64,000 bases of DNA, from positions 32,001 through 96,000 of the forward strand of contig JBOEGF010000032.1 in NCBI GenBank assembly GCA_050633305.1, written 5' to 3'. Below the pieces are notes generated by a model that was given only the letters and a program-made list of their open reading frames with translations, was not told the origin of the DNA and searched no databases. This document shows, in pieces, positions 1,199 to 61,459 of the stretch. Position numbers and translations under genes: made by a program. Every line of letters begins with the position of its first letter. Position 1 is the stretch's first letter. The DNA comes from Nannocystales bacterium (GTDB taxonomy: Bacteria; Myxococcota_A; Polyangia; Nannocystales; Nannocystaceae).

Positions 1199-2632
<1,434 letters not shown>

Positions 2633-2647: not shown

Positions 2648-3995
<1,348 letters not shown>

Positions 3996-3999
<4 letters not shown>

Positions 4000-4811
4000 G
4001 ACCAGCGAACCTCCCGGGCATCAAAGACCGGGCCATCAGAGCAGCAGTATTTGTAGGGTTTGGGTCCACGAACTGGAACCGCGCACCCCAAGCAGACACC
4101 GAATCCGCAGGCCATCTCCTCTTCGAGGCACAGCAGGGTGCGGACCTCGTGCGCCAGACCCATCGTGCGCACAGCCCGAAGCATCGGCGTGGGCCCGCAG
4201 GCGAGCACCTCGACAGCCTCACCGGACGCTTTCGCAGCCCGCAACCGCTCTTCGAGGGCGACGGTGACGAAGCCCTGATGGCCGCGACTGCCGTCCTCGG
4301 TGGCGTACGTTGTCTTCACGCCCCACTCGTCGAGGGCTTCAGTCAACACCAAGTCGTCGGCGTTGCGGCCTCCGTAGAACATCTCGACCGCCTCGGCTCG
4401 GCCCGCCTGGACTGCCCGGTGCGCCTGCAAGTGCAGTGGCGGCAGCCCAACGCCACCGGCGACCAGGAGCTGAGTCGCCTTCTCCGGAGCGCTGAAGCCT
4501 CGGCCGAGGGGACCTGTGATGGTCACCGCATCGCCGGGACGAAGGGCTGAGAGTGCGGCGGTTCCGCGCCCGTAGATCTTGATCAAGATCGAGAACGATC
4601 CATCGGGCTGCGCGTCGAGGACCGAGAAAGCCCTGGGGTTGAGCATCTCCCTCCCCCACTCGCCGCGGACCATGATGAACTGGCCCGGCTCGATGCCGGA
4701 GAGCGGAGCACCGCACGCTGCGTCGGCGTTAAAACGCAGCGTGAAGTACCCCCCGGACAACGCTTGGTTGTCCACCAGTTGCGCGCCGAACTGGGAGGGA
4801 GGCACCTGCAC
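3996..4811 (-). CDS. pyrK: Dihydroorotate dehydrogenase electron-transfer subunit
   Basis: RAFSV, GPLGRGF, AGGVGLPP, CGPTPM, [2Fe-2S] motif MACGFGVCLGC...CSDGPVF. Confidence 0.93.
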
Positions 4812-47003: not shown

Positions 47004-47740
47004 AGCGAACGCTCGGTGTCTTTGGGCTGGGCCTCTTCTTCGAGGTAGAGGACGGTGACGGTCCCGGTCTTGGAGATGCGGCCGGTGTGTCCCGAGAACT
47101 CGACCCCGTGAATCTCTGCCTCGACCTTCTTGGGGCTGGGCAGGTCATCCTCGGCACCCAGTGCAGGGTCCGGGTTGGGAAGATCTTGGGCGGCGGCCAT
47201 GCGTTCTCCGAGTGGGAGAGCCGAAGGAGCATCCTTCGTCTCGGCGCCCGGAGCGACAGCCGTGTCCGGCTCCTGATTCGCTGCGGGCTCCTGTGCAGAC
47301 GCGACAGCGCCGGGATTATTCTCGGCGTCCGGCCCTTTGTTGGGGTCCGGGTTCGGAGTCGACACCACCACCAGTGTCACAGCCGCGGCAGCCGCCGCCG
47401 CCGCGAGCGGGAGACGTGCCGGCCGGAGCGCAGTCCAGACTCTGGACCACAGCGAGCCCGCGGAAGACGGAGCCGCAGCAGCCGCCTCGCGGTCGAGCTG
47501 ACGGTCGATGTCATCCCAGATCTGCTCAAACCGGGCCTGCGGGATCTCTGCCGCCTTGGTTTTGAGCGTCTCTTGTACGAGACCGCGAACAATCCCCATC
47601 TGCGCGAGTTCATCGCGCAGGTCGGGATCGGCGTCGATCTGGGCGGCGAGCTCGTGGGCCTCGGCCCCGGTGCTTTCGCCGTCGAAGTGAAGCGCGAGTT
47701 CGTCACGCGACACGCCGGAGGTTCCAACTTGGTTGGTCAT
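47000..47740 (-). CDS. Anti-sigma factor (single TM)
   Basis: LALHFDGE (ZAS-like without Cys), TM PLAAAAAAAAVTLVVV; coupled to the ECF sigma. Confidence 0.75.
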   Translation of the reverse strand: MTNQVGTSGVSRDELALHFDGESTGAEAHELAAQIDADPDLRDELAQMGIVRGLVQETLKTKAAEIPQARFEQIWDDIDRQLDREAAAAAPSSAGSLWSRVWTALRPARLPLAAAAAAAAVTLVVVSTPNPDPNKGPDAENNPGAVASAQEPAANQEPDTAVAPGAETKDAPSALPLGERMAAAQDLPNPDPALGAEDDLPSPKKVEAEIHGVEFSGHTGRISKTGTVTVLYLEEEAQPKDTERSL

Positions 47741-48456
47741 GATGCAGCCTCCTGTGAGACGGACCCGGATGCCCCGGTGTTCGATTTGGACTCAGGTTTA
47801 TTTCCGGCCTTCGCCTTTTTCGGTTTGGGACTCCCATCCGGGTCGTCCTCGGTCGTGCTCGGGACGTGCTCTAGGCGCGTCTTGAGCTGCTTTTGCATGT
47901 TCCGGCGGGCGTGGAACAGCCGGCTCATGATCGTGCCCTTGGAGCAGTTCATCGCCTTGGCCATGTCCGCATAGGAGAGGCCTTGCAGCTCGCGCATGAC
48001 GATCACCATCCGATGCTTCTCGCTGAGTTCGTCCAAGCTGTTCTCGACCGCATCGAGGATCTCCTTGTTGCGGACGGCCTTGGAGGGGTCCCCCAGCGTG
48101 GAGGCTGGAAGACGGTCGGACGATGCATCGGTCTCGCCGTCATGGCGCAGCTTGTCGTCGAACTCGACGTCCTTCTTGCGGCCGGCGCGCCGGAGGTGGT
48201 CGATGCAGAGGTTGGCGACGATTCGATACAGCCACGTGTAGAAGCTGGATTGACCCTCGAACTTCGGCAGGTAGCGGTGGACCTTGATGAAGGCCTCTTG
48301 GGTGACGTCCAGCGCATCTTCCTGGTTCCGGAGGAATCCATACGCAACGGCGTAGACCTTGCGCTCATAGCGCTTAAACAGGATCTGGAACGCACGACGA
48401 TCCCCACCCTTGCAGGCTTCGACCAGCTCGTGGTCGTCGGCTTCGTTGGAAACCAC
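47737..48456 (-). CDS. ECF RNA polymerase sigma factor (RpoE-like)
   Basis: DALDVTQEAFIKV, SSFYTWLYRI, GLSYADMA, GTIMSRLFHAR. Confidence 0.93.
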   Translation of the reverse strand: MVSNEADDHELVEACKGGDRRAFQILFKRYERKVYAVAYGFLRNQEDALDVTQEAFIKVHRYLPKFEGQSSFYTWLYRIVANLCIDHLRRAGRKKDVEFDDKLRHDGETDASSDRLPASTLGDPSKAVRNKEILDAVENSLDELSEKHRMVIVMRELQGLSYADMAKAMNCSKGTIMSRLFHARRNMQKQLKTRLEHVPSTTEDDPDGSPKPKKAKAGNKPESKSNTGASGSVSQEAAS

Positions 48457-48641
48457 GTGTTGCTCGCGCTTCGACGGCCGGCGATGGGGACTATTCAGGG
48501 GCGAATGTCTGTCCCGTTAGAACCCGGCCCCGGAACGGGGCGGTGGGGTCGCGGCAGCCCGGCCAGTGACTGCGTGGCGAAGCGCGGTTATACCTTTCCT
48601 CGCCCCCCGCGCGCCAACCCCTGGCCAGCGCGAGGCGCAAT

Positions 48642-51600
48642 GTGGAGCTCCGCTTGGCTGTCCCGCCCTCGAATACCGTTGCGCCGCTGACGCGGTTTTT
48701 GGTCTCAGCGTCCCGCATCGCGGCTCTACGCACCGCTGGCGCGGGGCTGTTCGATGCCGCCCTGATCGCCTGTGCATGCGCGGGAGCCGGCGCTTGGCTC
48801 GCAGGATGGACACTTCGCGGCGACATCGTGGCCCCGGTCGCGCTCGGGGCGGCCAGCGTCAGCCTGCTCGTCTGGGTAGGGCGCCACGCACTCCATGCCT
48901 GGCGGGCCCACGGGCGCCCGATGCGAACCGCAGCTTCGATCGCCCGCCACCGTGGGCCGCTCGGCGAGGACGGTCCCGGGCACGTCGCGGCCGATCGGAG
49001 CCTCCGTCATGAAGTGATGGGGGCGATGGAGCTGGCCAGCGGCGCCGAGGTCCGCTCGCCCGATCTCGCCGCGGCCTACATCGACGACGTCGCGCGCCGC
49101 GTCCGCCAACCGAGAATCGACGCGGCCCTCGCCCTGCCCAGTCCGCGCTGGCGAGCCCGCGCCGCGGCTTCGATGCTCGTCGGGGCACTCGCGGTGTCCT
49201 GCGTGGTGGCCCCCACGGCCGTCGGTGGTCTGGCCCTGTTGCTCTCCGGTCACGACGGTCGCCCCCCTGCCCCTCCCGAGCCCGCGTGGTCATCGCTGAC
49301 CCTGGAGCTTCGGTATCCGGAGCACACGCGCCGGCCGCCTCGGGTCGTCCCCAACCCCAGCGGCGCCCTTCGAGTGGTCGCTGGAACCGAGGTCATGCTG
49401 ACTCTAGAAGCGTGGCGACCCGCAGCACAGGCCCGCGCGGTCCTCAACTACGACCCAAGCGCGGAGCTCGAGCACCCCGAGCCCGAGGTCGTTGAGCTCA
49501 CCGCCCTCCCCCCCGACCCCGACAACCCCGAGGCGAAACCTGGCCTCCGCTTCGAGGGCACCTTCGTCGCACGTGGCGCCGGCACATGGACCGTCGTCCT
49601 GCTCGACGAACCCGACGCCGAGGACGACGCCCGGCATTCGCCACCGATGCCGCTCGTGCTCGAAGACGACCGCGCTCCGGATGTCGAGCTGCTGCCGCTG
49701 CCCGCGGCACAGCGGGAAGTCAGCGAGCAACAGAGCGTCGATGTGCGCTTCGTCGCCCGGGATGATTTCGGCGTGGCCTCGGCGGAGCTCGTCTATCAGA
49801 TGCCCGACGGGACCACGCACCGACTCAGTGCGGGGACTCCAACCGCGTCCAACCGCGCCTGGCGACAACGCTACACCTGGGACCTCTCCTCGGTCCCCAT
49901 CGAGCAGCGCAGCGAGGTCCTGTACTGGGTCGAGGTCCGCGACAACGACCCGGGATTGGGCCTGATCGCCCTCGCCGACCCACCGGGAAAGATGACGCGC
50001 TCGGCCACAATGTCGCTGGTCGTCCAAGACGATGAAGCCGAGCACGCGGCCAACATCGTCAAGCTCGCGGAGCTCCGCGATCGCGCCGTGGACCTTCTGG
50101 CCGCCCGTATGACCACGCGGGCGTTCGAGGAGGCCCCAACCGACCCCGCGGGCTTCGAGATCCCGCTCCCTGTCCAAGCCGCCGGCGCTCGTGAGCTGCT
50201 GGGGGGCAGCGGACAGCTCCTGGCGATGCTCGCGCTGGCGATCGACTCACTCAGCGTCGACACGCTCACCCACGAGCGCGACGTCGCGATTCTGACCAAG
50301 GTTCATAAGCGCCTCAAGGGTCTGCACGACGAGGCGCTGAAGCTGCACGTCAAGATGCCGACCGGACTCGAACGGCGAGACCCCGATGCCACCGACGCGG
50401 CGCTCGACAAGCTCGGGAAACACAACGAAGAAGAAATCACCCAGCTCGAGGACGAGATCATCCGTATCGACGACCTCGTCGACGGTCAGGTCATCGAGCG
50501 GCTCGAAGCGCTGGTCGCCCGGCTCGAGGCAACACAGCGCAAACTCGTCGACCTGCTCGAGCAGCTCAAGGCCGGCGATTCGTCCGCACGCGCGCAGATC
50601 GAACAACTCGAGCAGCGGCGGAGGGACGACCTGCGCCGGATCGCCGAAGCGCGCGCCATGCTCCGCGAGGAGCTCGATCCCGAGTTCATGAACCTCGACG
50701 CATTCAAGGCGTTGGAGGACATGAAGAAGCAAGAGCAGCTCTCCGAGATGCTTCGCCAAGGCAAGACGGACGAGGCCCTCGAAGCCGCCAAGGGGCAGCT
50801 GGGCGAGGTTCAGCAGCTGCGCGATGCCGTCCAGGAGAAGCTCGGTCAGCCCCAGGGTGAAGCGCCTGCCCTCTCGGAGGAGGAGCGTCAGCGCATGGAG
50901 CTGCTGCGTGAACTCAGCCGACTGCAGGACGAGGAGTCGAGCGTTCGCTCCAAGACCCAGGAACTCGAAGAGGCCTACCGGTCCAAGGTCAAGTCACAGG
51001 CCGCGCAGGAGGATGACCGGAAGGATGCTGGTGCACAGGCGCAGGCGCTTCGAAAGTCGCTCGAGGAGATCAATGACGCCCGCCTGGGACGCGACGCCCG
51101 GCGCGGACTGGAAGATGCACGCGCGGCCCTCGAACGCCTCGAGGACACCGCTGAGCGCGAAGACGCGACGCAGCTGCAACTCGATGATGCGGCTCGGGCC
51201 GCCGCGGAGGGGTTGCAACGCGCGCAGGCGGGCTCCGAGACCACGGAGCGGGAGGGCAAGGCGCTGAAGAAGGCTGGGAAGAAGGCTCAGGCGCTGCGCA
51301 CCCAGACACGCAAGCCGCTCCCGGGCACGTCCGATGTCTTGGATGCGACCCAACAAGCCAAACTCGAGGAGCTCGAGGGCCGGCAAGAAGGACTGCGGAC
51401 GAGAGCCTCGACGCTGATGGAGTCGGACAACGCGAAGCTGCTCCCCAAGGAAGGCCGCGGCGCGATGCGAGACGCCGACGGCTCGATGGAGCGAAGCGCG
51501 GACGAGCTCGGCAAGGACGGAACAGAACGGGCTCTCCAAGCCCAGAACGGGGCCTGGAACGCGCTGCAGCGCGCGATTGACAGTCTCCGGGAAGGTCCCC

Positions 51601-51755
51601 CTCCGCCCCCTCCGCAGGGCGGTTCCCACGATGCCAGCACCGAGGCCGAACGCGACCGCAGCCTCCGGGACGCGCTCATGGAGGCGATGAAGGAGAAGTC
51701 GCCCGATGGATACGATGCGCCCGTGAAGCGTTACTACGAGGAGTTGCTCCGATGA
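48642..51755 (+). CDS. DUF4175-like large membrane-anchored coiled-coil protein
   Basis: N-terminal TMs, YPEHT, DDRAP, DDFGV, DND motifs, long coiled coil, C-terminal VKRYYEELLR; start uncertain. Confidence 0.7.
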   Translation: MELRLAVPPSNTVAPLTRFLVSASRIAALRTAGAGLFDAALIACACAGAGAWLAGWTLRGDIVAPVALGAASVSLLVWVGRHALHAWRAHGRPMRTAASIARHRGPLGEDGPGHVAADRSLRHEVMGAMELASGAEVRSPDLAAAYIDDVARRVRQPRIDAALALPSPRWRARAAASMLVGALAVSCVVAPTAVGGLALLLSGHDGRPPAPPEPAWSSLTLELRYPEHTRRPPRVVPNPSGALRVVAGTEVMLTLEAWRPAAQARAVLNYDPSAELEHPEPEVVELTALPPDPDNPEAKPGLRFEGTFVARGAGTWTVVLLDEPDAEDDARHSPPMPLVLEDDRAPDVELLPLPAAQREVSEQQSVDVRFVARDDFGVASAELVYQMPDGTTHRLSAGTPTASNRAWRQRYTWDLSSVPIEQRSEVLYWVEVRDNDPGLGLIALADPPGKMTRSATMSLVVQDDEAEHAANIVKLAELRDRAVDLLAARMTTRAFEEAPTDPAGFEIPLPVQAAGARELLGGSGQLLAMLALAIDSLSVDTLTHERDVAILTKVHKRLKGLHDEALKLHVKMPTGLERRDPDATDAALDKLGKHNEEEITQLEDEIIRIDDLVDGQVIERLEALVARLEATQRKLVDLLEQLKAGDSSARAQIEQLEQRRRDDLRRIAEARAMLREELDPEFMNLDAFKALEDMKKQEQLSEMLRQGKTDEALEAAKGQLGEVQQLRDAVQEKLGQPQGEAPALSEEERQRMELLRELSRLQDEESSVRSKTQELEEAYRSKVKSQAAQEDDRKDAGAQAQALRKSLEEINDARLGRDARRGLEDARAALERLEDTAEREDATQLQLDDAARAAAEGLQRAQAGSETTEREGKALKKAGKKAQALRTQTRKPLPGTSDVLDATQQAKLEELEGRQEGLRTRASTLMESDNAKLLPKEGRGAMRDADGSMERSADELGKDGTERALQAQNGAWNALQRAIDSLREGPPPPPPQGGSHDASTEAERDRSLRDALMEAMKEKSPDGYDAPVKRYYEELLR

Positions 51756-53413
51756 TCCGCGCACGAACGCTTCGCCCCCTTCGCTCGACGATCGCCGCAG
51801 GTCTCGTTGCCGCGCTCGCCGTCATGCCATCGTCGTCCGCGCACGCCACCGTCGGTCCGGCCGCAACCAGCCCAGCGCTGATCGCCGCGCAACCCCTGGC
51901 TCTGCTGGCCTCCGACGCGCTCGACGACGTCGACGCCGCCCTCCTCGCGTGGGACCTGCCTGCCGCACGTGCTGCGATGAAGCGAGCACCAGATACACCG
52001 CAGGCCAAGGTGAAGCGCGGCGTCGTCAAGCTGTATGAGGCCGAGTACACCGAGGCCGAAGCCTTGCTCGCAGAGGTCATCGCCGCGGGCACCCTGCCCG
52101 AGGGCAGCGCGGCGCTCGAGGAGGCCACACACTACCTGGGCTTGTCCCGCGGCGCCCAGACGGCGCTCGATCAGGCGATCGTCGTTCGAAGCGAAGATGG
52201 CAACTTTGAAGCGGTGTTCGCCAGCGATGAAGACGCGCTGTTGGCCCCCTACCTCTTCGACGCCATGAAGGACGCCCGAGAGCGCATCGGGGCGATCATC
52301 GGGGTCGTCCCCGCGCACACGGTCCGGTTCGAGTTCCTCGACTTGGCCACCAAGCTCGCCCTTGTCACCCCGCTCTCCGTCGAGAACATTCGGACCACCG
52401 GCACCGTCGGGGTGACCAAGTACCGCCGCGTCATGATGATCTCGCCGCGGATCATGGTGTACGGCTACGGATGGCTGGACACGGCAGTCCACGAGTACGT
52501 GCACTACGTACTAACAATGCGCACCGACAACCTCGCCCCGGTCTGGCTGCAAGAAGGCCTCGCCAAGCTGCTGGAGACACGATGGCGGCGGACCGATCCC
52601 GAGCCGTTGAGCCCCACCATCGCCTACCGGCTCCATCGGGCGATCGTTGACGATGACCTGGTGACGCTCTCCGAGATGTATCCCTCCGTCGCGATGCTTC
52701 CCAGCGCGGAACGGGCCGCCCTCGCCTACGCCGAGGTCGAAACGATGCTGGGCCTGCTTCACGAGCGTAAGGGCAACGAAGGGATTGCGCGGCTGCTCGA
52801 CAAAGTCGCTGCGGGTGAGGACGCCGAGGCAGCCTTGGCGCACGCGTGGGGAGACGACTTCGAAGCGTTCATGTCGGAGTGGAAGCGCGTCACCAAGGCG
52901 CGCACCGCCAGCGGGGAAGACGGCGAGCTGTCCACGCCCGAGTTCAAGGACGGCAAGCCTGCACCCGAGCAATTCGGAGACGTCTTCTCCGAGCTTGGCG
53001 GGGGCGTCGCCCGCCAGCACGCTCGTTTGGGCGCGCTGCTCCAGGCCCGCGACCACGACCACGCCGCCGCCGCACAGTACGAAAAGGCGCGCAAAGCCGA
53101 CAAGCGGGCCCGCAAGGACCCAACACTGGCGCGGCGACTGGGGCGTCTGTACGTCGACCTCGAGCGATTCGCGGAGGCGGTGCCGCTGTTGGACATCGCC
53201 GCCGCGCTCGACCCCGAGAACGCCAACCTCGCCGCTGCCCAGGGGCGGGCGAGACTTCGCAGCGGAGATCGGGATGGGGCGAGCGAGGCCCTGGACCGGG
53301 CCATCCGCAACAACCCATTCATCCCCACCCTGCACTGCGACCTTGCAGCGCTCGCGCCCACGGAAGCGCGGAAGCTGGCCGAGCAGAAGCTCTGCGATCC
53401 CAAGGCCCGCTGA
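51752..53413 (+). CDS. Exported MA-clan metallopeptidase-like protein with TPRs
   Basis: Signal peptide; HEYVH...PVWLQEGLA; TPR helices. Confidence 0.8.
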   Translation: MIRARTLRPLRSTIAAGLVAALAVMPSSSAHATVGPAATSPALIAAQPLALLASDALDDVDAALLAWDLPAARAAMKRAPDTPQAKVKRGVVKLYEAEYTEAEALLAEVIAAGTLPEGSAALEEATHYLGLSRGAQTALDQAIVVRSEDGNFEAVFASDEDALLAPYLFDAMKDARERIGAIIGVVPAHTVRFEFLDLATKLALVTPLSVENIRTTGTVGVTKYRRVMMISPRIMVYGYGWLDTAVHEYVHYVLTMRTDNLAPVWLQEGLAKLLETRWRRTDPEPLSPTIAYRLHRAIVDDDLVTLSEMYPSVAMLPSAERAALAYAEVETMLGLLHERKGNEGIARLLDKVAAGEDAEAALAHAWGDDFEAFMSEWKRVTKARTASGEDGELSTPEFKDGKPAPEQFGDVFSELGGGVARQHARLGALLQARDHDHAAAAQYEKARKADKRARKDPTLARRLGRLYVDLERFAEAVPLLDIAAALDPENANLAAAQGRARLRSGDRDGASEALDRAIRNNPFIPTLHCDLAALAPTEARKLAEQKLCDPKAR

Positions 53414-53518: not shown

Positions 53519-54703
53519 CTAGGCGACGCCCACGGAACCGTGCGGGGAGTTCACCGCATCCAAGGTGGGGTCCGCACCTGAAACACGGCGCTTCTTCGCC
53601 GCGCGCTGGAAGGTGCCATCGATCTGGCGGAGCAGTCGCCGAAGGCTCTTGCACACGGGTGCCGCCTGCCGGACCAGCACCCCAACCTGAAAGCCGATCT
53701 CGGGGGGTCCGATCCGGTCGATGACCAGCCGGACAGTCCCGACCACGGCTTGAATCTCCCGCCCCGCATCCTCCGTCGGCTGAGCGTCGACGTCAAAGAA
53801 CACGTGCGCCAGTCGGCAAAGAGCTCGAGCCGCGAGGGCTTCGTCGACATCCGACGTGCAGCGACCGGTCACGACTTCGGCATGACGCAGTAAGAACGCG
53901 CCGAGCACGTCCGGTGTCTGGGAGAGGCGCGAGAGTTTCTCCACCACCTCGGGGTATGCGACCGCCACGACCTCCTCGACCGGCTCCGCGTTCCCCCCCG
54001 GGCGCGCCGTGAATCCACGCGCCAACAGACCCTCCCATCGACCCACGATCGTTCGGGCGCACCGGGTCTTGCCCGGCAGCCACGTGGCCTCAGCGTCCAG
54101 CCAACCGAGCATTCCGTGAACCGCCTGCGAGCCGACCAGCTCCCCTGCGGTGGCGTGGATCGGCTGTCCACCATCGAGGTAGATCGTTCCGAAGCGCTCC
54201 GGTCGGTTCGCCGTTTCCGCGCAACGCAGGTGTAGGGCGCCGTGGGCTCCCGCTGCGCAGTGCAGGGTCAACAGCATCGGCGTGGGCACACCGGTCGTCG
54301 TGCCCGAGAACCCCGCATCCGGAGCCGGCTGCCGGAGCAGCTCCTGAAGCTGCTTGGCGCCGAACGGACGTGCGAGCAGTCCGGCGGCACCAAGGTGGCA
54401 GGCGGTGGCGACCCGGTCGTCGTCCAACCGCTCGGCATAGGCGATGACCGGAAGACCAGGAAACCGCGTCTCGATCTCCGCCACGAGTTCGGTCGCAGCA
54501 TCCGACCCGAGGTCCAGGTTCACGACCACAGCGTCGAGCGCTCCTCCTGCCTCAAACACCGAGATGGCCGCCGCGACGCTTGGCACCACCTGGATTGCGA
54601 GCGGTTCGGGGAGCGCCGCGCCGTCCGCACGAAGGCCTTCTACGGACCCTGGGGAGGGGTCGACCAGCAGGATTGGGGTATGGGCGGAGCTGACGTCGTT
54701 CAT
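53519..54703 (-). CDS. Pseudo-receiver + DUF4388 + roadblock-like protein
   Basis: ILLVDP...DAVVVNL...ARPF; GFSG...GTIYLDGGQPIHA; C-terminal PDVLGAFLL...VGVLV. Confidence 0.72.
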   Translation of the reverse strand: MNDVSSAHTPILLVDPSPGSVEGLRADGAALPEPLAIQVVPSVAAAISVFEAGGALDAVVVNLDLGSDAATELVAEIETRFPGLPVIAYAERLDDDRVATACHLGAAGLLARPFGAKQLQELLRQPAPDAGFSGTTTGVPTPMLLTLHCAAGAHGALHLRCAETANRPERFGTIYLDGGQPIHATAGELVGSQAVHGMLGWLDAEATWLPGKTRCARTIVGRWEGLLARGFTARPGGNAEPVEEVVAVAYPEVVEKLSRLSQTPDVLGAFLLRHAEVVTGRCTSDVDEALAARALCRLAHVFFDVDAQPTEDAGREIQAVVGTVRLVIDRIGPPEIGFQVGVLVRQAAPVCKSLRRLLRQIDGTFQRAAKKRRVSGADPTLDAVNSPHGSVGVA

Positions 54704-54920: not shown

Positions 54921-56513
54921 GTGATTGCGGCCGATGATTCGATCCTTCCGGGGAGCTCCGTCCTTATCGTGGACGACCACGAGCCCCATCGGACGCTTTT
55001 GCAGAACTACCTGACCGCCGTCGGGTGCCAATGCATCGGCGCCGGCGGAGGAACCGAGGCGCTCGAGCAGCTGGGTAAACACGAGTTCGACATCGTGTTG
55101 TTGGACCTGCGCATGGATGACCTCGATGGCATGGAGGTTCTCAAGCGCGCTCGGGCGAAAGGACACACCGCGCCAACGATCATGATGTCCGCTGAGGGCA
55201 CGATCTCCCACGCGGTCGACGCCATTCGGCTCGGCGCGAAGGACTTCCTGGTCAAACCGTTCGAGCTCGAGCAGCTCCACGACACCGTGACCCGTGTCCT
55301 GGGGAGCGGGCGTGGTGGTGCGGCGTCCGGGCCCGACCCGCGAGCGTTGTGGCGAGATGCCCACGCCCCCGGCCTGATCGGGGACCACCCGAACCTGTTG
55401 GAGATATTCCTCGTCCTGGAGCGGATCTCAGGCACGGACTGCACGGTCCTGATCACCGGTGAGTCCGGCACGGGCAAGGAGCTCATCGCCCGGGCGATCC
55501 ACCACGCCTCGGGACGCGCGAAGAACCCCTTTGTCCCGGTCAACTGCGGGGCCATCCCGGAGACGCTCATCGAGAGCGAGCTGTTTGGGCACGCCAAAGG
55601 GGCGTTCTCGGGCGCGACCCAGGCCCGGGAGGGACGGTTTGCGGTGGCCGATGGAGGCACCTTGTTTCTCGACGAGATCGGGGAGATGTCCCTGTCGGTC
55701 CAGGTGAAGTTCCTGCGCGTCTTGCAGGAGCAGGAGTTCGTGCCCGTGGGGGAAACGCGACCGCGGAAGTGCGATGTCCGGATTCTGGCCGCCACGAACA
55801 AGGACCTCGAACAGATGTCCGCCGAGGGGTCCTTCCGCGAGGACCTGTTCTATCGACTGAACCTCATCCCGATCCACCTGCCGCCCCTGCGCGAGCGCTC
55901 GACCGACATCCCCTTGTTGGTCCGCTACTTCCTCGACCGTGATGCGCCCAAACGCCCCCGCCGCGTCGACGAGATCAGCGAGCGCGCGCTTTCGCTGATG
56001 GAGTCCTACCCCTGGCCTGGCAACGTCCGAGAGCTGGAAAACACCATCGAACGCATGGTGTTGCTGCACCAAGGCACCGGCACCCTCGACGTGGGCGACC
56101 TGCCGCCCAAGGTCCGCCAAGGGGCTGCGACCCCTCAGGCTCCGACCAGCCCTCCGGTGGCGGATCGCCCCACCCCGTCCGCGGCCCGCAGCGTGTTGTC
56201 CTTTCCGCTCTCCGCCCCCGCACCCGAGGCCCCGCCGCCGGCCGCCGCCCAAAGCGGCGAATACACCCTCGTACCCGACCCGTCCGAGTCCGTGGTGGCA
56301 CGCCGCGTCGCGACGACGCCGGATGGTTTCTTGCTCCCCGAGAAGGGCCTGAACCTCCGCGAAGCCGTGGAAGCGTTTGAGATGAGCCTGATCCAGCAGG
56401 CACTCGAACGCACGGGCGGCAACAAGAACCAAGCATCGATCCTCTTAGGCATGAACCGAACCACGCTGGTCGAGAAGCTCCGCAAGCGAAAACGAAAAGC
56501 TGGCGGTTCGTGA
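54921..56513 (+). CDS. Sigma54-dependent response regulator, FleQ/FlrA-like
   Basis: REC (VDD, LDLRM, KPF), GESGTGKE, ESELFGH-GAFSGA, LFLDEIG, WPGNVREL, HTH LGMNRTTLVEKLRK; start uncertain. Confidence 0.9.
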   Translation: MIAADDSILPGSSVLIVDDHEPHRTLLQNYLTAVGCQCIGAGGGTEALEQLGKHEFDIVLLDLRMDDLDGMEVLKRARAKGHTAPTIMMSAEGTISHAVDAIRLGAKDFLVKPFELEQLHDTVTRVLGSGRGGAASGPDPRALWRDAHAPGLIGDHPNLLEIFLVLERISGTDCTVLITGESGTGKELIARAIHHASGRAKNPFVPVNCGAIPETLIESELFGHAKGAFSGATQAREGRFAVADGGTLFLDEIGEMSLSVQVKFLRVLQEQEFVPVGETRPRKCDVRILAATNKDLEQMSAEGSFREDLFYRLNLIPIHLPPLRERSTDIPLLVRYFLDRDAPKRPRRVDEISERALSLMESYPWPGNVRELENTIERMVLLHQGTGTLDVGDLPPKVRQGAATPQAPTSPPVADRPTPSAARSVLSFPLSAPAPEAPPPAAAQSGEYTLVPDPSESVVARRVATTPDGFLLPEKGLNLREAVEAFEMSLIQQALERTGGNKNQASILLGMNRTTLVEKLRKRKRKAGGS

Positions 56514-56739
56514 CGGTCAGCGGGCTCCCGGCCGAGAACGGGACACAGGACCGCCGACCGCAACCGGCGCTTTGACGCTGCGGCAGTTCGCCGGCGTCCC
56601 TCCCCAGGGCCGCCGGTTTTCTCGTTCCGGCGCACGCGCAGGAGCACTGGTCCGGTCGGCGAGATCGGAGGCCACGGGTCGGGCCCGGAGTGCATGTGCG
56701 GCGGCCCGCGTGAGGGCCACCGTCGTTGGCTCTTGGGTC

Positions 56740-56756
56740 CTGGCCCACGGTTTGCA
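56740..56756 (+). promoter_or_regulatory. Sigma54 -24/-12 promoter of flhG-fliA
   Basis: CTGGCCCACGGTTTGCA: GG-N10-GC with TGGC and TTGCA, 36 nt before the flhG ATG. Confidence 0.72.
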
Positions 56757-56792
56757 CAAGCTGTGGGGTGCGGAACAACCCGCCCCCTCGCG

Positions 56793-57689
56793 ATGAGCCA
56801 AGAAGTCCCCCAGTCCGTCTCCGCGACACAAGACGCCCCCGTCATCCCACTGCATGGTCGGCCTCAGCCCGCCCAAGCACGGGTCGTGGCAATCGCTTCG
56901 GGTAAGGGCGGCGTCGGCAAAACCAACCTCGCCGCCAACTTTGCCCTCGCGCTCGGCCGCCTCGGCGCTCGGGTGCTGGCCGTCGATGCCGACCTTGGGC
57001 TCGCCAACCTCGACATCGTGTTGGGCCTCGCGCCCTCGCATACCTCGCTCGACATCCTCACTGGAGATGTCGACATCGAAGATGTCTTGGTCCCGGCCAA
57101 GAACGACGTCTGGCTGCTGCCCGGATCCCCGGGCAACTACGACGCGAGCAACATCGAGGAACTTCGGCGATACGAACTCATGACCGCGATCGACACCCTG
57201 GACTCCCGGTTCGACACGGTCGTCATCGACACGGGATCCGGGCTGGGTCCGGGGACTCTGGGCTTCTGTGCCGCCGCCGAAGAGGTGTTGCTGGTGATCA
57301 CCCCCGAACCGACTGGGCTTTCCGACGGGCTTGGCATGCTTCGAGCGCTGCAAGCGAAACACGGCGTGCAGCACGTGAAGGTCGTCGCGAACATGGTCGG
57401 CAGTCCCGCCGAAGGTGAAGTGGCGTTTGAGCAACTCCAGACCATGTGCAACAGGTCCCTGGACGTACGCCTCGAGTATCTCGGCGCCGTCCCCTACGAC
57501 CCCAACGTTGGACGCGCCATCATGCGGGGCCAGCCGACGAACGAGGCGTACCCCGACAGTCCTTTTTGCCAGGGCATCGCCCACGTTGCGGACACGTTCC
57601 TGGCATCGACCCAACGCGGAGCGCGACCGGGCGCCTCGCAGATCTTCTGGCGCAGACTGTTGCGCCAGCGAAACCACGGAGGCGAATGA
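56793..57689 (+). CDS. flhG: MinD-like ATPase FlhG/FleN
   Basis: SGKGGVGKTN, DADLGLANLD, IDTGSG, ITPEPT, C-terminal amphipathic IFWRRLL; directly before fliA. Confidence 0.88.
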   Translation: MSQEVPQSVSATQDAPVIPLHGRPQPAQARVVAIASGKGGVGKTNLAANFALALGRLGARVLAVDADLGLANLDIVLGLAPSHTSLDILTGDVDIEDVLVPAKNDVWLLPGSPGNYDASNIEELRRYELMTAIDTLDSRFDTVVIDTGSGLGPGTLGFCAAAEEVLLVITPEPTGLSDGLGMLRALQAKHGVQHVKVVANMVGSPAEGEVAFEQLQTMCNRSLDVRLEYLGAVPYDPNVGRAIMRGQPTNEAYPDSPFCQGIAHVADTFLASTQRGARPGASQIFWRRLLRQRNHGGE

Positions 57690-58519
57690 TGAGTGCAGCA
57701 GTCGAGAAACTGATCCCCCGTTCGAGCCAGCCTGCGAGCAATCCTGCCGCACAGGCGGCCAACACGGCACCTGCAGGCTTGCACCGGGTCGACGACGGCG
57801 CTGCGCCAGCCAACGAACGTCCGCCCGCGGTCGACCCCGCGCAGTACATGGAGTTCGTCCGTCGGCTCGCCCGCCGCCTCGCCCGCAATCTCCCCAGTCA
57901 CGTCTCGTTCGACGACCTGGTCGGCGCGGGCATGCTTGGGCTGATCGATGCCAGTCGCCGCTTCGATCCGTCCAAGTCCGACCGCTTCGAGACCTTCGCC
58001 GAGTTCCGGGTCAAAGGCGCGATCCTCGACGAGTTGCGTCGCTACGATCTGATGGCCCGCAACGCGCGACTCGCGACGAAGCGGATCGCCCGGAAAACCC
58101 AAGAACTGACCGCCAAGCTCGGCCGGCCTCCCGTCGAGGAAGAGCTCGCGGCAGGCCTTGGCATGACCGTCGGGGACTACCGAGAACTCGTCGCGCGCGT
58201 AGGCAGCGTACGGATGCTCAGCCTCGACGAGATGAGTCGCAACGACGACGACGGGGGCCGCGGCATGGAGCTTCCGTCTCCGAGCCCCCGACCCGACGAG
58301 CTGAGCATGAAGCGGGAGATGGTCCGGCGGCTCGGTCGTGCCATCGGGAACCTTCCGCCGCGGAAACAGCGCGTGCTCGAGATGTACTATCAGCGGGAGA
58401 TGACGCTGCGCGAGATCGGGCTGGAGCTTGGGGTCACGGAATCCCGAATCTGTCAGATCATGGGCGAGGCCACGGCGAAGCTGCGCACCATGCTCCGCTC
58501 CGACAGTTCACCGCGCTGA
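57686..58519 (+). CDS. fliA: Sigma-28 factor FliA/WhiG
   Basis: DDLVGAGMLGLIDA, FETFAEFRVKGAILDELR, LGVTESRICQI. Confidence 0.93.
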   Translation: MMSAAVEKLIPRSSQPASNPAAQAANTAPAGLHRVDDGAAPANERPPAVDPAQYMEFVRRLARRLARNLPSHVSFDDLVGAGMLGLIDASRRFDPSKSDRFETFAEFRVKGAILDELRRYDLMARNARLATKRIARKTQELTAKLGRPPVEEELAAGLGMTVGDYRELVARVGSVRMLSLDEMSRNDDDGGRGMELPSPSPRPDELSMKREMVRRLGRAIGNLPPRKQRVLEMYYQREMTLREIGLELGVTESRICQIMGEATAKLRTMLRSDSSPR

Positions 58520-58553
58520 GACCTGCGCGACGGAGCGATGTCACAGTCAAACG

Positions 58554-58573
58554 CGGCCTTCGGGCCGTTTTTT
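58554..58573 (+). terminator. Rho-independent terminator after fliA
   Basis: CGGCC-TTCG-GGCCG followed by TTTTTT. Confidence 0.75.
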
Positions 58574-58794
58574 CAATGCGCATTTCCCGACTACCGCATC
58601 GAGCCTGTGTCATACTTGTGGAACCACTCCCTCCCACGACCCGTCCGGCCCCGTTCAACTGCGGGACTTCATCCGGCGACGATGGGATACGGCGATGGCG
58701 CCGGCCTGAAAAGGTCGCGAGAACCGACGGACCTGAACCAAGATGAGCAAACGGGAGAAGCCGAATCCTTCGACCGACCCCTCGGGAGACGCAA

Positions 58795-59040
58795 ATGCTG
58801 ACACTCACGCGGAAGATCGGACAGAAGATACTCATCGGCAACGGAATCGAGATCGTCGTCCGGGAGGTCCGGGGACGGCAGGTCCGGCTGGGAATCTCGG
58901 CGCCGGCGGGACTGCCGGTGTACCGGGAGGAGCTGTACCAGGGCATCGCGGACGAGAACATCAAGGCGTCGAAGACGCCGACTCCGGACGAGCTGTCGCG
59001 CCTCTTCGCGCAGTGGAAAGTACTCGCTTCGGGCGAATAG
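58795..59040 (+). CDS. csrA: Carbon storage regulator CsrA (long, FliW-regulated type)
   Basis: MLTLTRKIGQ, VRLGISAP, VYREE (R44), N55 and C-terminal extension. Confidence 0.93.
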   Translation: MLTLTRKIGQKILIGNGIEIVVREVRGRQVRLGISAPAGLPVYREELYQGIADENIKASKTPTPDELSRLFAQWKVLASGE

Positions 59041-59450
59041 AAGTTCCGCAGGCGCAGCTCATCACACTCCCGATGGGCTTGCCCGGCTTCCCGGAAGCCA
59101 AGACGTTCGTCCTCATCGACGGACACAGCGACAACCCGTTCCGATGGCTTCAGGCCTTCGAACGGCCCGACCTCGCGCTGATCGTCATCGATCCGCTCGA
59201 AGTCGCGCCCGACTTCCCGCTCGACCTCGTCCGGCGCTCGGCGTCTTTCGCTGGGATCGATCCTGACGAGGACCTGGTCGTGCTCGTCGTCTGCACGGTC
59301 GCGCAAACCGAAGAGCCCACCGCAAACTTCCTCTCGCCGATCGGCATTGGGAAACGATCGCGGCTCGGAGCGCAGGTCGTCGTCCACGAATCCGGCTTTG
59401 GCTCGCAGGAGAGATTTCTTCACCTGCTCGCAGCCCCAGACCGCGCGTAG
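59013..59450 (+). CDS. fliW: Flagellar assembly factor FliW
   Basis: STRFG, GLPGFPE, PFRWLQ, LIVIDP, TANFLSPI; GTG 59013 overlaps csrA. Confidence 0.9.
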   Translation: MESTRFGRIEVPQAQLITLPMGLPGFPEAKTFVLIDGHSDNPFRWLQAFERPDLALIVIDPLEVAPDFPLDLVRRSASFAGIDPDEDLVVLVVCTVAQTEEPTANFLSPIGIGKRSRLGAQVVVHESGFGSQERFLHLLAAPDRA

Positions 59451-59844: not shown

Positions 59845-59862
59845 TTGGCACGCTTCGAGCAA
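59845..59862 (+). promoter_or_regulatory. Candidate sigma54 promoter of the HATPase-DGC operon
   Basis: TTGGCACGCTTCGAGCAA: strong -24 (TGGCACG), GG-N10-GC spacing, weaker -12. Confidence 0.5.
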
Positions 59863-59898
59863 CTAGTGTTCTCGCCTACCGATTCTTCGAGGACCGCC

Positions 59899-60498
59899 AT
59901 GCATCTCGTAACTACTCCCTCCGTCACCACTCCCGTCCGCGTCCTTCCCTTCAACGGTGCTTGTCGAGGTGAATCCGCGAACGACTCTGGATTGATGACA
60001 CCGCAGACCCGTACCCATCAGGTGAACATGCTCGTCGCCGGGTTGGTCGGTCGGGTCGCGGCTCGTGTGCAGTCCAAGAGCGTCAACATCGCCCTACGGC
60101 TTGCGCCCGGCGACCCGGCGGTGACGACCGACCCCGGCGAGCTCTCCTTCGTCATCGGAGCCGTCCTGGGTGCTGCCCTGCGGATCGTCGAAGAGGAGCG
60201 CGGTGAATACGTGGGAGTGCATGTCTCCGCGGCCCGCTCGAAGGTTCGTATCTCGATCACGACCGACGGCGTCCCACCGCTGCGCTTCGTTCGAGCACTC
60301 GACCCCCGTGGCACCAGCGGCGATGTCGACCCCACCCTCGCCCACTGCCGCCGGCTCGTCGAAGCACGCGGCGGTGCGTTGGTGCTGACCGAAGAAGATG
60401 GACGCCTCGGCTTCGCACTCGAGCTTCCCCGCGCCGTCCTCTCCCCCGGAATCCGACTCGTCCCCGGGCTCGCCGAATCTGTCCGCGAAGCTGCGTGA
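59899..60498 (+). CDS. Stand-alone degenerate histidine-kinase-like ATPase domain
   Basis: GAGGA RBS; LAHCRRLVEARGG...FALELP C-terminus; N and G boxes eroded; no HisKA. Confidence 0.6.
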   Translation: MHLVTTPSVTTPVRVLPFNGACRGESANDSGLMTPQTRTHQVNMLVAGLVGRVAARVQSKSVNIALRLAPGDPAVTTDPGELSFVIGAVLGAALRIVEEERGEYVGVHVSAARSKVRISITTDGVPPLRFVRALDPRGTSGDVDPTLAHCRRLVEARGGALVLTEEDGRLGFALELPRAVLSPGIRLVPGLAESVREAA

Positions 60499-60505
60499 AC
60501 GAACC

Positions 60506-61459
60506 GTGATCCCTCCAAGCGCCAACGGACCGCCGGCGCACGTCCTACTCGTCGATGACGAGCCGGTCGTCGCGCGAGAGCTGCGTGACCTCGTCCAGTC
60601 CTACGGCCATCGAGTGACGGCCTGCAACAGTTGGACCGAGGCCTTACGCGCCTTCGGAAAAGGAGACGTCGACCTCATCTTGATGGACGCCGTCATGCCC
60701 ACCGTTGACGGCTTCAAGCTCACCCGGATCATCCGGTCCCGAGCGAAGACCTACGTCCCCATCGTTTTTCTCACCGGCCTCGCCGACGACAAGGCGCGCG
60801 CCAACGGTATCGAAGCGGGCGGCGATGATTTCCTGACCAAGCCGATCGATCCGCTCGAGCTGCAGGTCCGCATCAAAGCGATGCTTCGGATCCGCTCGCT
60901 GACAAAGGCCCTCGAAGAGAAGTCGCGCACCCTGAGCCGACTTGTCGCGATGGATGCGTTGACGGGGATCGGAAACCGTCGGTCGTTTGACGAGCGAATG
61001 CAGACCGAACTGGGCGAGACGAGTGCTTCGAACGAATCGGTGTCGGTTCTGCTTCTCGACCTCGACCACTTCAAGTCGGTCAACGACACCTTTGGTCACA
61101 CGGTCGGTGACGACCTCCTTCGTGTGTTCGGTCGACTCCTCGCAGACAACACCCGCGCTCGTGACCTTCCGTATCGATACGGAGGAGAAGAGTTCGCGGT
61201 CGTCTGTCCCAGCTCGACGACCGATGACGCGTGCACCCTCGCGGAGCGCATTCGAGCCGCGTTCATGCGGATCAGTCCGCACGCGACTGCCGCAGGGGCC
61301 CGCACGTGTTCGATTGGCGTCGCGGGAACCGACATCTTGCCCGGAGCGACCAAGGAGGTCCTGCTGCAAGCCGCCGATGCGGCGCTGTACCGGGCCAAGG
61401 ACTCAGGGCGCAACTGCGTCTGTAAGTTCGACCCGATGTTCGACCAGAAGGTCGCCTAG
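60506..61459 (+). CDS. REC-GGDEF diguanylate cyclase
   Basis: LVDDE, MDAVMP, TKP; DALTG, DLDHFKSVNDTFGH, I-site RARD, RYGGEEF, ADAALYRAK. Confidence 0.93.
   Translation: MIPPSANGPPAHVLLVDDEPVVARELRDLVQSYGHRVTACNSWTEALRAFGKGDVDLILMDAVMPTVDGFKLTRIIRSRAKTYVPIVFLTGLADDKARANGIEAGGDDFLTKPIDPLELQVRIKAMLRIRSLTKALEEKSRTLSRLVAMDALTGIGNRRSFDERMQTELGETSASNESVSVLLLDLDHFKSVNDTFGHTVGDDLLRVFGRLLADNTRARDLPYRYGGEEFAVVCPSSTTDDACTLAERIRAAFMRISPHATAAGARTCSIGVAGTDILPGATKEVLLQAADAALYRAKDSGRNCVCKFDPMFDQKVA

Follow-up and report, generated by a model that had tools for sequence, protein, structure and literature searches.

A regulatory remnant of the native flagellar cluster in a Nannocystaceae genome that carries a second, unrelated flagellar cluster

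The window analyzed here is a stretch of 64,000 nt of contig JBOEGF010000032.1, from a member of the Nannocystaceae (genome code G000; 11.0 Mb in 90 contigs, 92% complete), which contains a cassette of five flagellar regulatory genes, namely a sigma54 activator, flhG, fliA, csrA and fliW. This cassette is a regulatory remnant of the native flagellar cluster of the family, and is unrelated to the complete flagellar cluster located elsewhere in the same genome, at C15:198486-237482 (the C15 cluster). Sequence comparison establishes the ancestry of the cassette, its deletion junctions, the selection acting on its genes, its conserved promoter boxes and an open frame in which csrA is nested. We consider it probable that the remnant was kept intact after the deletion of three structural blocks, likely as a cascade leading to genes of cyclic di-GMP (c-di-GMP) signaling and to chemosensory genes, and that the C15 flagellum was likely acquired. 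A more elaborate proposal, to which we give somewhat less than an even chance, is that the lineage swapped flagella and kept the whole cascade, with sigma28 rewired to a c-di-GMP and chemosensory regulon and the foreign flagellum separately controlled, and that throughout the family the translated csrA lies within an extended fliW frame, an arrangement which would couple the repressor to its antagonist.

The survey comprises 72 genomes of the family, seven of which belong to the genus of the window; open reading frames (ORFs) were listed for the 48-64 kb part of the window only. Type A denotes the native flagellar cluster found at the window locus in relatives, and type B a flagellar cluster of the C15 type.

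Ancestry of the cassette and of the second flagellum

In three relatives (G062, G065 and G067) the flanks of the window enclose a contiguous type A cluster of about 45 kb, and a single flank is attached in eight more genomes. The shared left flank codes for an extracytoplasmic function (ECF) sigma factor, a 1037-aa protein, an MA-peptidase/TPR protein and a receiver protein, and the shared right flank for an HATPase-like protein, a REC-GGDEF protein and a 500-aa protein. The type A order between them is activator, TPR-like gene, flgB..flhA-flhF-flhG-fliA-flgF..flgL-csrA-fliW, four copies of fliC, fliD and fliS. In the window, the activator, flhG-fliA and csrA-fliW are kept in this order and three blocks have been removed. 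The first junction lies at the sigma54 element which precedes flhG (56741..56755, + strand) and the second, marking the removal of flgF..flgL, at a terminator-like hairpin (58549..58573, +). The third, marking the removal of fliC..fliS, lies before the HATPase-like gene and the REC-GGDEF diguanylate cyclase gene (59845..61459, +), which follow fliS in type A clusters. To the left, the receiver-domain gene (53519..54703, - strand) is divergent from the activator; a MinD/ParA-like gene and one more, which separate the two in type A genomes, are deleted in the window. An earlier note, made from the window alone, had proposed a stripped flagellar cluster in which the order of the regulators was kept, and the whole type A cluster between the same flanks in relatives bears this out. 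It had also described structural genes as missing from the window, in agreement with tblastn searches using the C15 proteins and the whole type A cluster of a relative, which give no structural match on the contig.

At 47737-53413 of the window, the ECF sigma gene is divergent from the genes for the 1037-aa protein, which has no Pfam match, and for the MA-peptidase/TPR protein. The latter is present in 68/72 family genomes and marks the locus.

The cassette could in principle be a duplicate or satellite of the C15 cluster, or could owe its missing genes to an assembly gap; flhG-fliA does occur at both places, the C15 cluster has no csrA-fliW, and the assembly is 92% complete. This explanation is nevertheless extremely improbable. 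The FliA proteins of the two places are 35% identical and the FlhG proteins 38%, and they belong to different clades. The three junctions are clean and lie within contigs not only in the window genome but also in G001-G004, five separately assembled genomes in all. The search with the whole type A cluster of a relative finds no type A structural gene elsewhere in the genome. The explanation is refuted by the junctions and by the FliA and FlhA trees.

A tree of 40 FliA proteins puts the window copy inside the type A clade (100/99) and groups the C15 copy with a different family (100/99). In a quick tree of 33 FlhA proteins, the C15 type is nested among proteins labelled Haliangiales or Kofleriaceae by their sources, and a single Nannocystaceae clade combining types A and B is rejected (approximately unbiased test, p-AU 2.5e-6). 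Since these trees place them in different clades, the cassette and the C15 cluster are considered unrelated. The tree topology suggests that the C15 flagellum was likely acquired by transfer from a Haliangiales-like lineage. Type B is present in G000, G001, G004 and G005, which form one clade, and in G031 of another genus, and may have been gained once with later losses, or twice. The deep branches of the species tree are poorly supported, which counts against the explanation preferred here.

The C15 cluster is complete, with two motAB pairs, the export gate, basal body, hook, two flagellins, fliD and fliS, and it has its own activator, flhF-flhG-fliA and flgM; csrA and fliW are absent from it. 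Its Pfam inventory comprises flhAB, fliPQRO, fliFGMN, fliHIJ, flgBCFG, flgAHIJ, flgDE, fliK, flgKL, fliC, fliD, fliS, motAB and flgMN, where fliJ, fliK, flgJ and flgN score below the gathering cut-off and flgH, with no Pfam match, is assigned from its location and from tblastn identities of 38-53% to relatives. A third flagellin is found on C16, and genome-wide there are four flagellin-N matches and a full FlhA. A complete flagellar gene set elsewhere in the genome is what the earlier note had named as a refutation of its reading, and the genome is thus not that of a non-flagellated bacterium.

Two minor observations concern scattered genes. In G003, where no flagellar cluster was found, a single type B flagellin gene (L073, 8506-9330) has a sigma28-like box and lies beside repeated elements. 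The window genome further contains another FlhA/SctV-like gene, shorter than the first, as well as a FliP-like one (L013; G000 C5:280772-282511 and C43:19063), which likely represent a reduced type III secretion set.

Genes and control elements of the cassette

All five genes and the sigma54 site are intact and uninterrupted at the places where the earlier note had put them, and match the expected Pfam and TIGRFAM families. The activator (54921..56513, +) has a REC-AAA+-HTH architecture, is orthologous to the activator which heads type A clusters (61-68% identity), and matches PF00158 and PF02954. It keeps the acceptor Asp (LLDLRM) and the motifs GESGTGKE, GAFSGA and RTTLVEK, the last of which the earlier note had labelled a FleQ hallmark. 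In the FleQ-FleN and FlrA-FlhG systems, a sigma54 activator is followed by a MinD-family partner and a sigma28 factor, and FleN exerts feedback on FleQ. The AAA+ domain with its Walker A motif, GAFTGA-type loop and Fis-type HTH support the proposed likeness to FleQ/FlrA. The N-terminus, however, is a canonical PF00072 receiver with an acceptor Asp, and differs from the FleQ-type receiver of those proteins; the FleQ N-terminal Pfam domain has no match in the activator, and the solved FleQ structure aligns to residues 152-400 only. Judged by its position, the protein resembles a flagellar master activator, yet it is not classed as FleQ.

The flhG gene (56793..57689, +) codes for a MinD-family ATPase of type A, 46-54% identical to type A FlhG proteins, in which SGKGGVGKT and DADLGLAN are kept. 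It is the ortholog of the gene between flhF and fliA in type A clusters, but no cognate flhF lies beside it, and the sole flhF of the genome is the C15 copy. The start of fliA (57689..58519, +) overlaps the flhG stop; its product, a type A sigma28, contains regions 2, 3 and 4 and scores 227.8 bits with TIGR02479 (cut-off 189.6). The genome has two FliA copies, and the csrA and fliW of the window are its only full-length copies. No anti-sigma factor is seen in the cassette. The earlier note had counted flgM among the absent genes, and a native flgM is indeed not detected; its deletion cannot be claimed, as the native gene is either too divergent or absent (PF04316 matches type B clusters only, 5/72). 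G011, which is without flagellin (71% complete), has a type A FliA away from the locus (L072, 2804-3469), preceded at a distance of 81 nt by a sigma54-type site.

The sigma54 -24/-12 element before flhG (TGGC-N7-TTGC) is kept in 6/6 congeners aligned, while the surrounding DNA has diverged. Type A genomes have a similar element directly after the activator, ahead of the TPR-like gene and the flgB operon. About 170 nt upstream of the window element lies an imperfect palindrome, TTGAC-N5-G(A/G)CA (56572..56586), a candidate activator-binding site. It is aligned in 6/6 congeners, and its strict pattern matches in G000-G003 and G006 and fails in G004. The palindrome is absent before the C15 genes, and among sigma54-plus-palindrome pairs (3/468 genome-wide) that of the window alone stands at a known promoter. 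The hairpin with its U run is present as described earlier, but is modest (-11.8 kcal/mol, z -1.9, equalled by 9/200 shuffles) and, being seen in G003 and G004 and absent in G001 and G002, is the weakest element of the cassette. Downstream of it, the extended -10-like sequence TGTGTCATACT (58606..58616, +), kept in 5/5 congeners aligned, is a candidate for a separate fliW/csrA promoter.

Retention of the cassette in congeners without a detected flagellum

The ratio of nonsynonymous to synonymous divergence (dN/dS, NG86) between G002 and G006 is 0.033 for the activator, 0.069 for flhG, 0.028 for fliA, 0.12 for csrA and 0.066 for fliW, with 0.026-0.088 for the flanks. Over seven within-genus pairings, with dS up to ~1, all five genes fall between 0.03 and 0.26, and no stop or frameshift occurs in 6/6 complete cassette copies. 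This check, which the earlier note had called for, reveals purifying selection on all five genes. Smaller remnants in other genera (activator-csrA-fliW, activator only, csrA only) could be taken as a sign that the cassette no longer functions and is being lost. Such a view is highly improbable, and already largely refuted by the dN/dS values; the uninterrupted frames and the promoter boxes kept also speak against it.

Neither family searches nor a query with 40 kb of C15 DNA finds a flagellar gene in G002 or G006; the same query finds one flagellin in G003 and near full-length matches in G001. A flagellum is likely absent from the G002 and G006 lineages.

The predicted cascade and sigma28 regulon

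In the cascade that these elements suggest, phosphorylation of the activator would be the input signal, and the phosphorylated activator would act through the palindrome on the ancestral sigma54 promoter, which now stands directly before flhG-fliA. FlhG may damp the activator, by analogy with FleN and FleQ, and such negative feedback would explain why flhG is kept without flhF. FliA would read CTCAAG-N16/17-CGATG promoters of PilZ, EAL, HDOD, CheB/MshEN, FIST and kinase genes. CsrA and FliW, expressed from their own promoter near 58606-58616, would constitute a separate post-transcriptional switch, in which translation of FliW likely begins at the upstream ATG and passes through all of csrA.

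The FliA motif precedes fliD in 8/8 type A clusters (once as TTCAAG) and in 0/2 of type B; type B flagellins have TAAA-type boxes in its place, and it is found before none of the C15 genes. In G000, a gene start lies 4-17 nt after 11/50 motif matches, compared with 7/249 for wrong spacings and 11/507 for a shuffled -35 box; an earlier form of the motif preceded a gene start in 10/61 matches. Raw genome-wide counts of TCAAG-N14-GYCGATRY show no excess over a reversed-pattern control in most of the 72 genomes, and weight is therefore given only to where a match lies with respect to a gene start and to its conservation among orthologs.

Strict and looser scans yield as candidate targets two PilZ genes, an EAL gene (C24:239880), HDOD, CheB/MshEN (C43:215637), MshEN-ATPase and FIST genes, two Ser/Thr kinases and several unknowns; one PilZ site is at C4:214947. 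Both boxes, with changed spacers, precede the EAL, CheB/MshEN and PilZ orthologs in G002, G003 and G006 in 9/9 cases by eye (CTCA(A/G)N) and 3/9 strictly. In G044, which has no FliA, these three targets are without a match, and in G062 a match is either missing or partial. This comparison, with a single genome of each kind, hints at their recruitment to the regulon within the window genus. The sigma28 regulon is a prediction derived from these patterns.

The proposal of the earlier note that the cascade was co-opted for another process gains indirect support from the purifying selection in congeners without a detected flagellum and from the c-di-GMP and chemosensory genes among the predicted sigma28 targets, although a role shared with the C15 flagellum may still be envisaged. 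In the latter case, the remnant would have been rewired to the C15 flagellum, the activator and second sigma28 helping in its transcription and CsrA-FliW supplying a flagellin checkpoint. We judge this rather unlikely as a whole, though some cross-wiring is plausible, in particular between CsrA-FliW and type B flagellin. A number of findings lean toward it and weigh against an exclusively non-flagellar role. The C15 cluster has no csrA or fliW; RTTLVEK is common to its activator and that of the window, which are the only two activators with this motif in the genome; and the promoter of its fliC_a, CTAAAG-N16-CGATT, differs by two letters from the type A motif. A C-terminal LAQANQ stretch, with a putative role in FliW binding, is retained in all type B flagellins, the leader of the C16 flagellin carries two ACGGA words, and one type B flagellin is kept in G003. 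FliW is more tightly constrained in the window genus (dN/dS 0.03-0.11) than in the flagellin-free genus g15 (0.31-0.40). The genomes of G002, G003 and G006 are 84%, 90% and 72% complete, so that a flagellar cluster could be unassembled or mis-binned there. As for the regulon itself, the motif was refined after the conserved sites had been seen, and among four targets traced into G002, G003 and G006 the MshEN-ATPase failed, with no close ortholog there and its site absent in G001 and G064.

Opposed to the rewiring are the equal constraint between G002 and G006, where no flagellar gene is found, the activator, FliA and FlgM which the C15 cluster possesses for itself, and the absence of the type A motif before its genes. 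Moreover, FliW occurs in 0/44 genomes of the family nearest to type B, and in G031 a type B cluster is present with neither FliW nor CsrA found (71% complete). A predominantly non-flagellar cascade is preferred here.

The candidate targets start just 4-17 nt past the -10 box, so many of their transcripts would be leaderless or nearly so. A further sigma28-like site, at C25:17513, is conserved in six genomes of the genus and was dropped, since it lies inside an antisense gene. Three chemosensory clusters of G000 are located at C13:152423-162554, C18:626342-632402 and C11:294345-298450; that on C13 contains CheX and a PAS-containing methyl-accepting chemotaxis protein, and adjoins a candidate sigma28 target. 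In most type A flagellin leaders (e.g. L058, L063, L075), the start is preceded by a GGGCACG-N2-4-GCCC hairpin and CCACGAAGGA. A sigma54-type site takes their place at the first flagellin of each type A array, and ANGGA is found in 25/36 leaders.

Nesting of csrA in the fliW frame

The csrA gene (58795..59040, +; 81 aa, PF02599) lies wholly within a long fliW ORF (58743..59450, +; 235 aa). Relative to csrA, the long ORF is read in the -1 frame, without a stop from the ATG at 58743 to beyond the end of csrA; it codes for an N-terminal extension of ~85 residues, predicted to be disordered, and then the FliW domain (PF02623). The earlier note, which listed fliW after csrA, had missed this arrangement; FliW is present and ends at 59450, but its ORF contains csrA entirely. 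The nested frame is common to 24/24 loci of the window genus and of type A genera, and 52-73 nt ahead of each csrA stands an in-frame ATG or GTG. In 18/18 type A loci, no ATG, GTG or TTG occurs between the csrA start and the conserved RFG motif of FliW, which is itself within the 3' end of csrA.

Over csrA codons 1-60, the fliW frame contains a stop in 0/23 loci, compared with 18/36 controls in which fliW is lost or separate. A third-position T that would create a stop is found at 0/177 sites, against 81/869 at other sites (22/306 and 168/1238 in controls), where kinship among the loci causes Fisher values to be overstated. The stop analysis excludes G067, whose csrA has a frameshift, and excludes from both groups the second csrA-fliW copies of G061 and G066 and an unrelated csrA of G010. 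Measured against a flanking gene, synonymous divergence in csrA is reduced as well, with median ratios of 0.32-0.86 in all five genera with the overlap and of 0.93-1.19 in all five controls. Structure prediction with 23 sequences gives a predicted local distance difference test score (pLDDT) mostly >85 for the FliW domain and <50 for residues 1-82, which fits disorder of the latter; a first prediction with four sequences (mean pLDDT 45) was uninformative.

On these grounds, the long FliW is probably translated in type A genomes, and in the window genus the balance tilts toward its translation less strongly. A competing explanation of the overlap, with a substantial minority share of the probability, is that FliW is not made from the upstream ATG: it would start at GTG 59013 or at a near-cognate codon, or a CsrA-FliW fusion would arise by -1 frameshifting, and the open frame would be incidental. 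In the window genus, GTG 59013 is kept in 6/6 and could start a FliW of normal length, and four close public proteins are all 141-143 aa, which tells against the long form. Most loci have no clear Shine-Dalgarno sequence at the upstream ATG, in-frame CsrA-FliW fusions exist in two other families, and T at stop-making sites is somewhat depleted in controls too. Nevertheless, GTG 59013 is the Val of a conserved hydrophobic position, and the type A loci have neither a usual start before RFG nor a consistent near-cognate codon. A late frameshift would need no open frame over csrA codons 1-60, where stop-making T is nonetheless missing, and the in-frame start upstream of csrA is found in every locus of the nested type.

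The nesting may couple the two products. In Bacillus subtilis, fliW starts upstream of csrA and overlaps it, fixing the stoichiometry (PMC6529632; bioRxiv 2020.07.02.184341). There the two genes overlap at their ends, whereas in the window the fliW frame takes in the whole of csrA, with the FliW domain following it. If the long FliW is translated, the arrangement would be a rare case of one well-studied gene lying entirely within another on the same strand, missed by gene callers, and a second solution to the problem of FliW:CsrA stoichiometry.

In 15/16 csrA-fliW loci from outside the family, fliW is read from a separate start codon in the customary position. One locus (L225 of G478, 1501-2145, minus strand) has csrA apparently nested in fliW, with a clear Shine-Dalgarno sequence before the upstream ATG. 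The fusions of CsrA and FliW in one frame are those of L178 (G130, 3573-4166) and L183 (G124, from 19385).

Relation to known systems

Flagellar regulators that outlast the structural genes and act on other physiology have a parallel in Clostridioides difficile clade 5, where fliC-fliW-csrA is kept and expressed in non-motile strains (PMC11898703). That clade keeps its flagellin, whereas the window has lost the native flagellin and keeps the activator, flhG and sigma28, with an unrelated flagellar cluster present. A second parallel is WhiG2, a sigma28 of Actinomycetota encoded away from the flagellar cluster, whose predicted targets include chemotaxis, type IV pili and c-di-GMP metabolism (PMC12871210). 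WhiG2 is described there as controlled by RsiG and c-di-GMP, whereas the fliA of the window is under the ancestral sigma54 activator at the ancestral locus.

In Geobacter sulfurreducens, an flgJKLMN-csrA-fliW operon is described in PMC13407953, which confirms the csrA-fliW portion of the Geobacter gene order cited in the earlier note. For Anaeromyxobacter, the flagella of Myxococcota have been proposed to be ancestral and lost in most myxobacteria (PMC2330069). The Geobacter and Anaeromyxobacter clusters are whole, with gene order as in type A. The main texts of PMC10576062, PMC11937823, PMC11821767 and PMC10746217, in the parts accessible, do not mention this locus, and their supplements may list Myxococcota flagellar genes. 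No description of the remnant series, the flagellum replacement or the csrA-fliW nesting was found in the open-access literature, which leaves most subscription papers outside.

Graded remnants across the family

Flagellin is found in 25 of the 72 family genomes, FlgI in 24, FliA in 27, FliW in 31 and CsrA in 62. In the window genus, FliW and csrA are present in 7/7 genomes and FlgI in 4/7. In genus g15 the locus consists of activator-csrA-fliW in 5/6 genomes, and flagellin, FliA and FlgI are missing in 6/6 (four of them at least 92% complete). Genera g2 and g5 have the activator alone, and g10, g11, g14 and g16 keep csrA (11/12 loci fetched). The species tree is labelled per genus; individually, no csrA was found in G034, and G045 retains just the activator. 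A single locus within the family thus spans the grades between an entire flagellar cluster and a lone csrA, so that the old idea of an ancestral flagellum lost in myxobacteria, and the question of which regulators outlive the machine, can now be tested on aligned DNA. To this the window genus contributes the replacement of one flagellum by another, unrelated one, together with a few predicted sigma28 targets outside the flagellar system.

The CsrA proteins follow this series. Residue N55, required for FliW binding in B. subtilis according to bioRxiv 2020.07.02.184341, is present in 28/28 FliW-bearing loci and 0/31 csrA-only loci, which represent about two independent losses and not 31; it is lost exactly where fliW is lost. 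In the window, CsrA keeps I14 and N55, and FliW N195 and Q211 align to the contact residues N108 and Q124 of the B. subtilis protein (5DMB), which are thus also kept. The K123-D41 pair of B. subtilis is A/P in the window proteins. As a candidate third partner of CsrA-FliW, the genome offers three type B flagellins, the native ones being absent.

Extra csrA-fliW or fliW copies are located off the flagellar cluster in G061 (L055) and G066 (L056 and L057), where fliW is separate from csrA. In the csrA leaders of g4, g7-g11, g14, g16 and g17 (e.g. L058, L096, L099), the ribosome-binding site of csrA is overlapped by GCCA(A/C)GGAGG, including at loci that have lost fliW, a pattern suggestive of autoregulation by CsrA. 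The window genus has CTCGGGAGAC or CACGGAGAC in its place.

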